A stretch of DNA of 13,042 bases from a virus (Duplodnaviria; Heunggongvirae; Uroviricota; Caudoviricetes), in IMG/VR virus record IMGVR_UViG_2585427782_000003, positions 1 through 13,042 of that record. The stretch is one strand, 5' to 3'. Positions within the stretch are counted from its first letter, which is position 1. Each line of letters starts with the position of its first letter. Position numbers and translations under genes: made by a program. Below, piece by piece: positions 11,428-11,632 of the stretch. The notes beneath the pieces were generated by a model, which searched no databases, was not told the origin of the DNA, and saw only the letters and a program-made list of their open reading frames with translations.

Positions 11428-11462
11428 AACCCCGTTTGTTGGCTGCAAGCGGGGTTTTGTGT
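11428..11462 (+). terminator. Terminator-like hairpin between endolysin and Rz
   Basis: 11-bp stem AACCCCGTTTG/CAAGCGGGGTT (one G-U), loop TTGGCTG, followed by TTGTGTTT; A-run precedes it so it could act in either direction. Confidence 0.45.
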
Positions 11463-11533
11463 TTCCTGACTCTGGAAAAGTCAAAGGAGAAAGTGTGTTT
11501 GATTTTAGCAAACTGATTCGGGAGATTCGAGTG

Positions 11534-11632
11534 ATGGCTGGAAAATTATCCACCTGGAAGTTCATTCTTATCTGGCTGGTGTTTGTGATTATGGCCTCCG
11601 GTTATTTCATCGGTCAGATACGCTGGTGGTGA
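11534..11632 (+). CDS. Small hydrophobic protein (32 aa, single predicted TMD), translationally coupled to Rz
   Basis: ORF MAGKLSTWKFILIWLVFVIMASGYFIGQIRWW; GGGAGA 8 nt upstream; stop TGA 11630-11632 sits 1 nt before the Rz ATG; an in-frame GTG at 11495 could extend it to 45 aa; below the size cutoff of the ORF track. Confidence 0.35.
   Translation: MAGKLSTWKFILIWLVFVIMASGYFIGQIRWW

Follow-up and report, generated by a model that had tools for sequence, protein, structure and literature searches.

The subject of this report is a small open reading frame (ORF) between the lysozyme and Rz genes of a tailed-phage sequence (Caudoviricetes; IMG/VR record IMGVR_UViG_2585427782_000003), of which we analysed a stretch of 13,042 nucleotides, positions 1 to 13,042, here called the window. 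Several described systems resemble it in part. LysA of phage P2 is also located between endolysin and spanin genes, and lambda S105/S107 and phage 21 S68/S71 are dual-start holin/antiholin genes. In the SymE/SymR layout the first codons of the target gene house the antisense promoter. Morons, as described by Hendrix and colleagues for HK97 and HK022, are reportedly expressed from the prophage, each with a promoter of its own on the upstream side and a terminator on the downstream side. The mycobacteriophage proteins LysF1b and LysA2b are lysis regulators with one transmembrane domain (TMD) (bioRxiv 10.64898/2026.08.27.747656; PMC13056207), and LysA2b of phage D29 is encoded downstream of the tape-measure gene, outside the lysis cassette (bioRxiv 10.64898/2026.08.27.747656). 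ORF52 of BSPM4 is a single-TMD holin modulator of 64 amino acids (aa) (PMC11657625). The type I toxin HokW (hokW-sokW) helps to release prophage Sp5 (PMC8621323), and a prophage antisense RNA mediates exclusion in Salmonella BTP1 (PMC7067206).

Comparison with relatives makes it almost certain that the window ORF is a real gene under purifying selection, and its product is very probably a small membrane protein made only late in the phage cycle. The reading that we favour, at a probability of roughly 50%, is that of a tightly throttled, late-expressed inner-membrane protein that acts as an accessory lysis-timing factor and also relays ribosomes to Rz; to the lysis-timing role as such we would give rather less than an even chance. 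The ORF itself is already known, being catalogued in databases as a hypothetical protein. What is new is the evidence for a selected gene, its two possible starts, a portable architecture found across bacterial classes, a positional bias, and a statistical case for an antisense promoter. The features between the two flanking genes are as follows.

11336..11425, plus strand: untranslated stretch after the lysozyme stop, closing with an A-rich tract (11420-11429)
11426..11458, plus strand: G+C-rich hairpin with A- and T-run flanks, intrinsic-terminator-like on both strands; AAAACCCCGTTTGT/TGGCT/GCAAGCGGGGTTTT, then GTGTTTCC
11459..11494, plus strand: leader, read from the sequence
11495..11632, plus strand: 45-codon ORF, V/MFDFSKLIREIRVMAGKLSTWKFILIWLVFVIMASGYFIGQIRWW, with GTG start and Shine-Dalgarno (SD) sequence AGGAG at 11485-11489, 5-nt spacing
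11534..11632, plus strand: 32-codon form, that of the initial annotation, from ATG to TGA 11630-11632; MAGKLSTWKFILIWLVFVIMASGYFIGQIRWW
11552..11626, plus strand: transmembrane helix predicted by AlphaFold2 (AF2), codons 20-44, ending in a conserved I-R-W-W
11630..11636, plus strand: TGA-A-ATG junction of small ORF stop and Rz start, read from the sequence

By chance statistics alone neither the ORF nor the hairpin would stand out: there are 40 ORFs of at least 20 aa in 3 kb, among which a 32-aa ORF is unremarkable, and a scan gives 4 terminator-like sites against 2.0 ± 1.6 expected. We judge both to be real because of the comparison with relatives. The frame is open and conserved from the GTG at 11495, which gives a protein of 45 aa, the length both of phrog_6632 and of WP_000459345.1, the model of the Prokaryotic Genome Annotation Pipeline (PGAP). 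The match to phrog_6632 is full-length (E = 8.8e-29), residues 1-45 aligning with all 45 profile positions, and RefSeq WP_000459345.1 differs from the window protein at one residue (Glu16 vs Gly16). PGAP annotates the 45-aa ORF in about half of near-identical E. coli loci and nothing in the others; the ORF is likewise not annotated in the H-19B record. The initial annotation had named missing conservation, or stops in close relatives, as what would speak against the ORF. We find instead that the stop codon is reached in 207 of the 208 copies with DNA (the remaining copy leaves the contig end), with 28 distinct proteins represented; in five of the 207 (L120 and four other IMG/VR loci, of a '…VAIKG' subtype) a premature stop leaves 37 aa, and these are the sole disrupted copies among the 208. 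Nei-Gojobori counts for eight divergent copies give dN/dS values of 0.04-0.29, examples being the window against L006 (13 synonymous and 6 nonsynonymous differences) and L013 against L014 (13 and 3). Residues W21, K22, L25 and W27 never vary among the copies compared, and R43, W44 and W45 hardly do. What was first described as a 32-aa single-TMD ORF is indeed a conserved single-TMD gene, of whose 45-aa product 32 aa is only the short form.

Relatives were retrieved by protein and locus searches from Escherichia, Salmonella, Citrobacter, Yersinia, Brenneria, Symbiopectobacterium, Providencia and Dryocola, and by profile from Haemophilus influenzae, Canicola, Burkholderiaceae, Mycetohabitans, Neisseria animalis and Sodalis; the groups represented include Enterobacterales, Pasteurellaceae and Burkholderiaceae. 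An exhaustive profile search yielded 40 clusters, all with members of 32-86 aa and without fusions. AF2 predicts a helix at residues 4-17, a break, and a second helix at 20-44 (predicted local distance difference test score, pLDDT, 85), so the predicted product consists of an N-terminal amphipathic helix and one transmembrane helix. Charge distribution suggests an N-in/C-out topology, with the N-terminal helix cytoplasmic and I-R-W-W at the periplasmic face. Pfam gave no family for the ORF at E <= 1 other than a chance mucin match below the cut-off, and NCBIfam gave none; three other small-ORF types (B, C and D) introduced below drew a blank in Pfam, NCBIfam and PADLOC as well, and for all four types PHROGs holds only families of 'unknown function'. 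PADLOC returned no defence-system match at E <= 1, no similarity to Hok, Ldr, Ibs, TisB or like toxins was found, and our literature search found no paper containing the peptide, its accessions or its PHROG identifier. No holin or antiholin family matches either, and membership in a known one is therefore not supported. The product is of a known kind (small phage membrane proteins linked to lysis, or type I-toxin-like peptides) but belongs to no described family. Two further frames were rejected: a 57-aa ORF from the GTG at 11459, which starts in the T-run of the hairpin and whose relatives have in-frame stops 5-8 codons upstream of the 45-aa start, and a minus-strand 70-aa ORF (11353-11565), which crosses the hairpin and is interrupted in L011.

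The lysozyme stop lies at 11335 and the Rz ATG at 11634, leaving a spacer of 298 bp (11336-11633), whereas the K-12 Qin homologues rrrQ and rzpQ overlap and have none. The initial annotation was right that an extra spacer is present, with a terminator-like hairpin (11426-11458, with T-run) and a stop codon 1 nt before the Rz start, and wrong in its size, given as about 200 bp. The tight coupling to Rz that it proposed agrees with the junction as read from the sequence: TGA (11630-11632), A11633, ATG (11634). No AGGAG-like SD was found in the sequence upstream of the Rz ATG. The same TGA-N-ATG junction recurs in Citrobacter-type loci and with the type B ORF, and in other contexts the ORF stop is mostly 1-12 nt from the start of the next gene. 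By megablast the spacer matches 2081 E. coli records and the ORF 873; among 5426 complete E. coli genomes, 2068 match the spacer and 871 carry all of it including the ORF, the remaining ones matching up to or slightly beyond the hairpin and then diverging. Among the megablast matches listed, all but one cover the 11336..11425 part, and many stop at query position 129 or 156-157. The spacer is also present in the classic Shiga toxin (Stx) 1 phage H-19B and in many Stx1a-, Stx2a- and Stx2c-converting phages. In phage CP-1639 (L008, AJ304858) the spacer-ORF-Rz region lies only ~500 bp downstream of stx1B, and the fact that no holin or lysozyme is annotated in between suggests that both genes have been deleted there.

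On comparative evidence, the hairpin, leader and ORF travel as one cassette between unrelated late operons. Every lineage examined, Haemophilus, Burkholderiaceae and uncultured phages included, has the same 5' architecture of A-rich tract, G+C-rich hairpin, T-run, leader and start codon; the leader is 36-47 nt long with a small stem-loop across lineages, and the start is GTG or TTG in Enterobacterales. Among 142 non-redundant loci from Enterobacterales, the upstream neighbour is a lysozyme of glycoside hydrolase family 24 (GH24) of the signal-arrest-release (SAR) type in 89, another muralytic enzyme in about 10 (CHAP, GH19, GH19+PG_binding_1, GH108+PG_binding_3 or an unassigned 138-aa type) and a baseplate spike protein in 18. 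An endolysin is thus upstream in about 100 of the 142, from at least four Pfam-distinct muralytic families and with several spanin families. Downstream lie Rz (64 of 142), a type D small ORF (31), a gp46-like baseplate gene (16) or, in the remaining loci, one of several other spanin-like pairs. The hairpin and ORF are found between baseplate spike and gp46-like genes in an E. coli myovirus-type prophage and a Yersinia similis prophage; in the E. coli tail context the hairpin is precisely where the megablast match to the window (83.7% identity) sets in. In H. influenzae the cassette lies between portal and protease/capsid genes, with a 2-nt gap, and further distant sites are directly after the tape-measure gene (P0064), after a tail-tip gene, and in an accessory region ahead of the terminase gene. 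The ORF is co-directional with the flanking late genes in every case. One IMG/VR contig (L136, ~365-600, reverse strand) has terminator-like hairpins on both sides of the ORF, the sole such context.

The link to lysis is one of position, or guilt by association: because the Enterobacterales cassette prefers the endolysin-spanin junction whatever the enzyme or spanin family, a connection with lysis seems indicated. The same junction holds other genes of this kind. Other E. coli prophages have, between the same hairpin and Rz, one to four small single-TMD ORFs of types B, C and D, which correspond to phrog_4493/1115/3246 and phrog_4906. An …AFAI[RK]… motif is common to types B and C, and type B has the same IRWW ending as the window ORF. 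In Sakai Sp5 the spacer holds an antirepressor gene (ant) and a type D ORF (ECs_5707). Loci with one to four such ORFs between hairpin and Rz are these.

L003, 2222-2335
L004, 2157-2485
L005, 2156-2641
L097, 8383-8529

By its covariation the hairpin is a selected RNA structure. Across 21 lineages, 9 of 13 pairs are altered on both sides and 90.8% of cells are paired, a level that none of 500 shuffles attained, slid controls being no more than 59% paired; some of the two-sided changes replace A-U by G-C at the junction of the stem with the A- and T-runs. A terminator scan finds a 14-pair stem with 6 G-C and a T-rich tail, as in an intrinsic terminator, and the 121-nt region that contains the hairpin (11420-11540) folds with z = −4.6 against shuffles. 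Because G.U cells number 12 on the plus strand only and 2 on the minus strand only, selection appears to have acted mainly on the plus-strand (sense) RNA, as for a forward terminator, and a purely minus-strand terminator is disfavoured by the same count. For the window-type hairpin the free energies are −23.0 (plus) and −14.4 (minus) kcal/mol, with a C.A mismatch on the minus strand. Most versions are entirely Watson-Crick and could fold on either strand, and a strand comparison of minimum free energies over 44 unique forms is mixed (31 vs 13). Conservation extends to the A- and T-runs that flank the hairpin on either side, and the A-tract (consensus AAAGCGAAA) is kept in unrelated insertion contexts. 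Rfam scans at gathering thresholds found no family in the spacer, E <= 10 adding only sub-threshold, terminator-driven matches, and no family matched in nine related loci.

Two in-frame starts are each preceded by an SD, GTG 11495 by AGGAG and ATG 11534 by GGGAG (11520-11524, 9-nt spacing). Judged by conservation, 45 aa is the full-length form: the N-terminal helix is kept as protein in distant members that have ATG starts, one lineage having an in-frame 12-nt deletion inside the extension. The 32-aa form is plausible as a second product. Its start, Met14, is nearly invariant, 8 of 9 lineages have an SD-like duplex (−6.4 to −7.2 kcal/mol) ahead of it, AT-rich Haemophilus among them with AAGGAG, and synonymous-codon randomisation of this internal SD gives a combined Fisher p = 0.005. 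A degenerate-pattern scan also found L236, L229 and L222/L234/L237, in which hairpin and leader are missing together with the 13 codons of the N-terminal extension; these must use Met14 as their start, and GGAG or AAGGAG lies upstream of it. In L222, L234 and L237 two tandem paralogues with differing N-termini and no hairpin stand ahead of the gp46-like baseplate gene. Within the leader, UUCCU (11463-11467) and GACU (11468-11471) can pair with AGUC (11479-11482) and the SD AGGAG (11485-11489), and relatives have comparable stem-loops (CCUUG-N7-CAAGG and others).

The first codons of the ORF also appear to hold a promoter that points the other way.

11502..11530, minus strand: predicted sigma-70-type promoter, −35 TCGAAT (11530-11525), 17 nt, TG (11510-11509), −10 TAAAAT (11507-11502)
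11418..11496, minus strand: predicted ~75-nt cis-antisense RNA, inferred from promoter position and hairpin; tail UUUUUACUUUUAUU

Read on the minus strand, GAT-TTT-AGC-A, a run of invariant codons, gives TGCTAAAAT, an extended −10 element, and the invariant rare codon CGA supplies the TCG of the −35. Equivalent elements stand at the same place in Burkholderiaceae (TGCTAGAAT), in H. influenzae (TTGATA-17-TAAAAT) and in two uncultured lineages. We compared a simple sigma-70 matrix with 1000-5000 synonymous-codon randomisations per lineage, using local codon usage. The minus strand of the N-terminal half gave Fisher p 2.6e-7, with 7 of 9 lineages in the top 0.1-6%, whereas the controls gave 0.23 (N-terminal half, plus strand), 0.20 (C-terminal half, minus) and 0.67 (C-terminal half, plus). 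Synonymous change is also suppressed: codons 2-22 conserve their synonymous sites 2-10 times more strongly than codons 23-45 do, the proportions of synonymous differences (pS) in three pairs being 0.08 vs 0.79, 0.15 vs 0.59 and 0.24 vs 0.63. Statistically, then, codon choice in codons 2-23 appears to favour a minus-strand promoter. The same test on types B, C and D gave no signal, and a further minus-strand promoter-like site from the scan (11617..11588) is unsupported by the C-terminal-half test (p = 0.3). Beginning near the start codon, the predicted RNA would cover the SD and leader and end at the hairpin, which on the minus strand would serve as its terminator; the RNA folds into a 5' stem-loop and the terminator (z = −4.1), and the palindromic leader arms (CCTTG...CAAGG) would yield complementary loops in sense and antisense RNAs. 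That this RNA exists is a tentative proposition, which we hold at somewhat under even odds.

We picture the favoured mechanism as follows. No plus-strand promoter was found by scan in the spacer, and for want of a sense promoter the protein most likely comes from read-through late transcription only: the cassette would be silent until late transcription reads through the hairpin, which in this lambdoid prophage would be Q-antiterminated transcription. Q-modified late transcription of lambdoid phages ignores terminators. Expression would be lowered further by the GTG start, the leader stem-loop and probably the ~75-nt antisense RNA from the promoter in codons 3-12, leaving two possible products, of 45 aa (GTG 11495) and 32 aa (ATG 11534). 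The absence of a sense promoter, the upstream hairpin, the GTG or TTG start, the leader stem-loop and possibly the antisense RNA together suggest a product tolerated only late and in small amounts. Ribosomes terminating at the TGA (11630-11632) would restart at the Rz ATG (11634), and given the TGA-A-ATG junction and the lack of an SD before Rz, translation of Rz probably depends on the small ORF; it would no longer depend on the lysozyme gene. The protein itself would act late on the inner membrane and tune the firing of the S21-type pinholin as an accessory, not a core lysis gene.

A bolder version, which we regard as doubtful, sees in the cassette an antisense-gated small-membrane-protein module, of a kind not described before, in phage late operons of gamma- and beta-proteobacteria. 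The ~75-nt RNA, ending at a bidirectional hairpin, would mask only the upstream ribosome-binding site and GTG and so set the ratio of the 45- and 32-aa isoforms, a holin/antiholin-like pair; this ratio would act as a threshold switch both for the action on the membrane and for lysis timing. If so, the ratio would also affect Rz synthesis through the coupling and, in Stx phages, the timing of toxin release.

Several observations weigh against the lysis-timing proposal and its antisense component. The protein resembles none of the known holin, antiholin or spanin families, nor any defence or NCBIfam family. Copies outside lysis cassettes (baseplate, portal-protease, post-tape-measure and accessory sites) form a substantial minority, so the link with lysis may only reflect a permissive insertion site. 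A forward terminator in essential late operons of phages without known antitermination is hard to reconcile with it. The idea of an antisense terminator is weakened by the wobble count of 12 to 2 for the plus strand and by the C.A mismatch of the window hairpin; two of nine lineages show no minus-strand promoter signal, and the combined promoter p-values are inflated because lineages share ancestry. Sequestration of the SD by the leader, suggestive by eye, is not significant (occlusion below 0.05 in 6 of 22 lineages, which does not establish it statistically). Finally, the window's own copy may be drifting, in view of the defective prophage and of codon 16 (11540-11542), which is Gly (GGA) here and Glu (GAA) in nearly all relatives.

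As we rank the alternatives, the main rival of the lysis-timing reading is a module like the type I toxin-antitoxin systems, in which the peptide is a membrane toxin silenced by a constitutive cis-antisense RNA and serves addiction, abortive infection or hok-like killing that helps lysis. The peptide would suit the part, being small (45 aa), hydrophobic and single-TMD with several low-expression features; the minus-strand promoter signal is strand- and region-specific, the A- and T-runs flank the hairpin on both sides in unrelated contexts, and the CCTTG...CAAGG arms give the complementary loops mentioned above. There is a precedent in hokW-sokW of Sp5 (PMC8621323), and a hok/sok locus lies within the window. 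We nevertheless think it unlikely: no promoter for the toxin was found and a terminator stands directly upstream, the ORF is always co-directional with late genes and coupled to them, which an autonomous module would not need, and the relatives without hairpin, leader and promoter region keep the short ORF. The wobble pairs favour the plus strand, and no Rfam family matches.

An improbable alternative is a moron of the lysogenic-conversion type, through which the prophage would express, for example, a superinfection-exclusion protein. A small inner-membrane protein between conserved late genes occupies a typical moron site, the ORF is intact though the prophage is defective, and exclusion by an antisense RNA has the Salmonella BTP1 precedent (PMC7067206). 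Against it stand the position of the terminator, upstream rather than downstream, the lack of a promoter between hairpin and ORF, the weak start codon and the negative PADLOC search.

Very improbable, too, is a dedicated spanin partner that binds the Rz TMD or regulates Rz/Rz1 and is coupled to fix the ratio, close to the spanin regulator first suggested for this ORF. The 1-nt stop-start gap with Rz is found here and in Citrobacter-type loci, the …IRWW-TGA-N-ATG junction is conserved and common to the unrelated type B ORF, and Rz is the next gene in 64 of 142 loci. Against this, the same protein precedes non-homologous spanins, gp46-like genes, a capsid protease and other small ORFs; it is not adjacent to Rz in four-ORF arrays, which separate the two; and K-12 Qin and many other cassettes work without it. 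No constant link to one spanin family was found, and the presence of the cassette in baseplate (18 loci), head (portal-protease/capsid) and tail (post-tape-measure, post-tail-tip) operons argues that it is not a partner specific to Rz or to one endolysin, so that this part of the initial annotation is set aside.

Hardly credible is the reading without any protein function, in which the hairpin terminates or stabilises the holin-lysozyme message and the ORF is a translational relay to Rz that took over when the overlap of R and Rz was lost. In its favour, no obvious SD precedes Rz, which starts 1 nt past the ORF stop, about half of the identical copies are without a PGAP annotation of the ORF, and the hairpin region is commoner than the ORF (2081 vs 873 records). 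But a relay needs translation and not sequence, and yet the amino acids are conserved (dN/dS 0.04-0.29; W21, K22 and W27 invariant; the R-W-W C-terminus nearly so) and the family persists in Rz-less contexts and across bacterial classes.

The prophage of the window is a lambdoid one from E. coli and resembles Qin. Its other features are listed here.

130-181, minus strand: DicF (Rfam)
2348-2523: sok antitoxin RNA, marking a hok/sok type I toxin-antitoxin locus (Rfam)
7043-7289: three tRNAs (Rfam)
7369-7558: STnc100 (Rfam)
8165-10036: SASA-family esterase, in the right-hand part of the window
10187-12101, plus strand: whole host lysis cassette (Pfam; RefSeq annotation of near-identical loci)
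10187-10402, plus strand: class II S21-type holin, a 2-TMD pinholin (Pfam PF04971)
10407-10751, plus strand: YdfR/DUF1327 gene (Pfam PF07041)
10802-11335, plus strand: SAR-type lysozyme, its N-terminus resembling a signal-arrest-release domain (Pfam PF00959)
11634-12101, plus strand: Rz (Pfam PF03245)
11854-12039, plus strand: Rz1, embedded in Rz, with lipobox-like LVVSAC

DicF, sok, the tRNAs and STnc100 are accessory RNAs typical of Qin- or Stx-phage-like elements; STnc100 has been reported as a relative of the PasD small RNA (sRNA). A 2026 preprint on Pas sRNAs places the PasA/PasC sRNAs of related prophages in the esterase-holin gap, which here (10040-10190) has a terminator-like hairpin at 10119-10147. 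Since the preprint deals with that gap, a Pas sRNA was rejected as a match to the Rz spacer. The YdfR/DUF1327 gene is a second extra gene within the lysis cassette, placed between holin and endolysin; in some relatives it is truncated, or joined by a 90-aa gene on the opposite strand. Downstream of Rz a tail-fibre-like frame, 5'-truncated and without start codon (12103-13042, plus strand, third frame), exits the window end; it contains …AASSKAAAASSASSAASS…GNDPNFATTMTNALAGKQPKD…, with its onset ~100 nt past the Rz stop. Because this remnant follows Rz, we call the prophage defective; the packaging, head and tail genes, from terminase through mid tail fibre, appear to have been lost.

In Stx phages, toxin release depends on phage-mediated lysis. 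Since Rz translation probably depends on the ORF, a membrane protein between R and Rz could affect lysis time, burst size and toxin release in these phages, where the ORF is common and often left unannotated. More generally, comparative data proved sufficient by themselves to validate a very small ORF, and they show the enterobacterial endolysin-spanin junction to be a hot spot for at least four small single-TMD protein families outside current lysis models. The antisense RNA, if real, would make the cassette a widespread relative of type I toxin-antitoxin systems embedded in late operons.

Of the entries closest to the window protein, phrog_6632 and WP_000459345.1 ('hypothetical protein', 'phage protein') are the same family at full length; they carry no function, regulatory context or literature. 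LysF1b/LysA2b and BSPM4 ORF52 are lysis-nonessential small membrane proteins that set timing through a 2-TMD holin-like protein and whose genes lie within the lysis cassette or away from it, and the holin of the window is also 2-TMD (an S21-type pinholin); like LysA2b, the relative P0064 is encoded downstream of a tape-measure gene. These regulators differ in that no sequence similarity was found, nor was any to be expected, their hosts are other ones, and they have not been described with an upstream hairpin or antisense promoter. With hok/sok and SymE/SymR the locus shares a small hydrophobic peptide and would share, if the prediction holds, a ~75-nt cis-antisense RNA over ribosome-binding site and start codon, whereas the window cassette is embedded in late operons and lacks the promoter of its own for the peptide mRNA that a type I system would have. 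As in morons, conserved late genes have an extra gene inserted between them that is mosaically distributed and moves independently; unlike them it has its terminator-like hairpin upstream, no sense promoter, and a stop that abuts the next gene. The dual-start holins, finally, likewise have two in-frame, SD-preceded starts, and the putative longer and shorter products of the window would also differ by a charged N-terminal segment, whereas in the window the starts are 13 codons apart instead of 2-3, the protein has one TMD instead of 2-3, and it matches no holin family.

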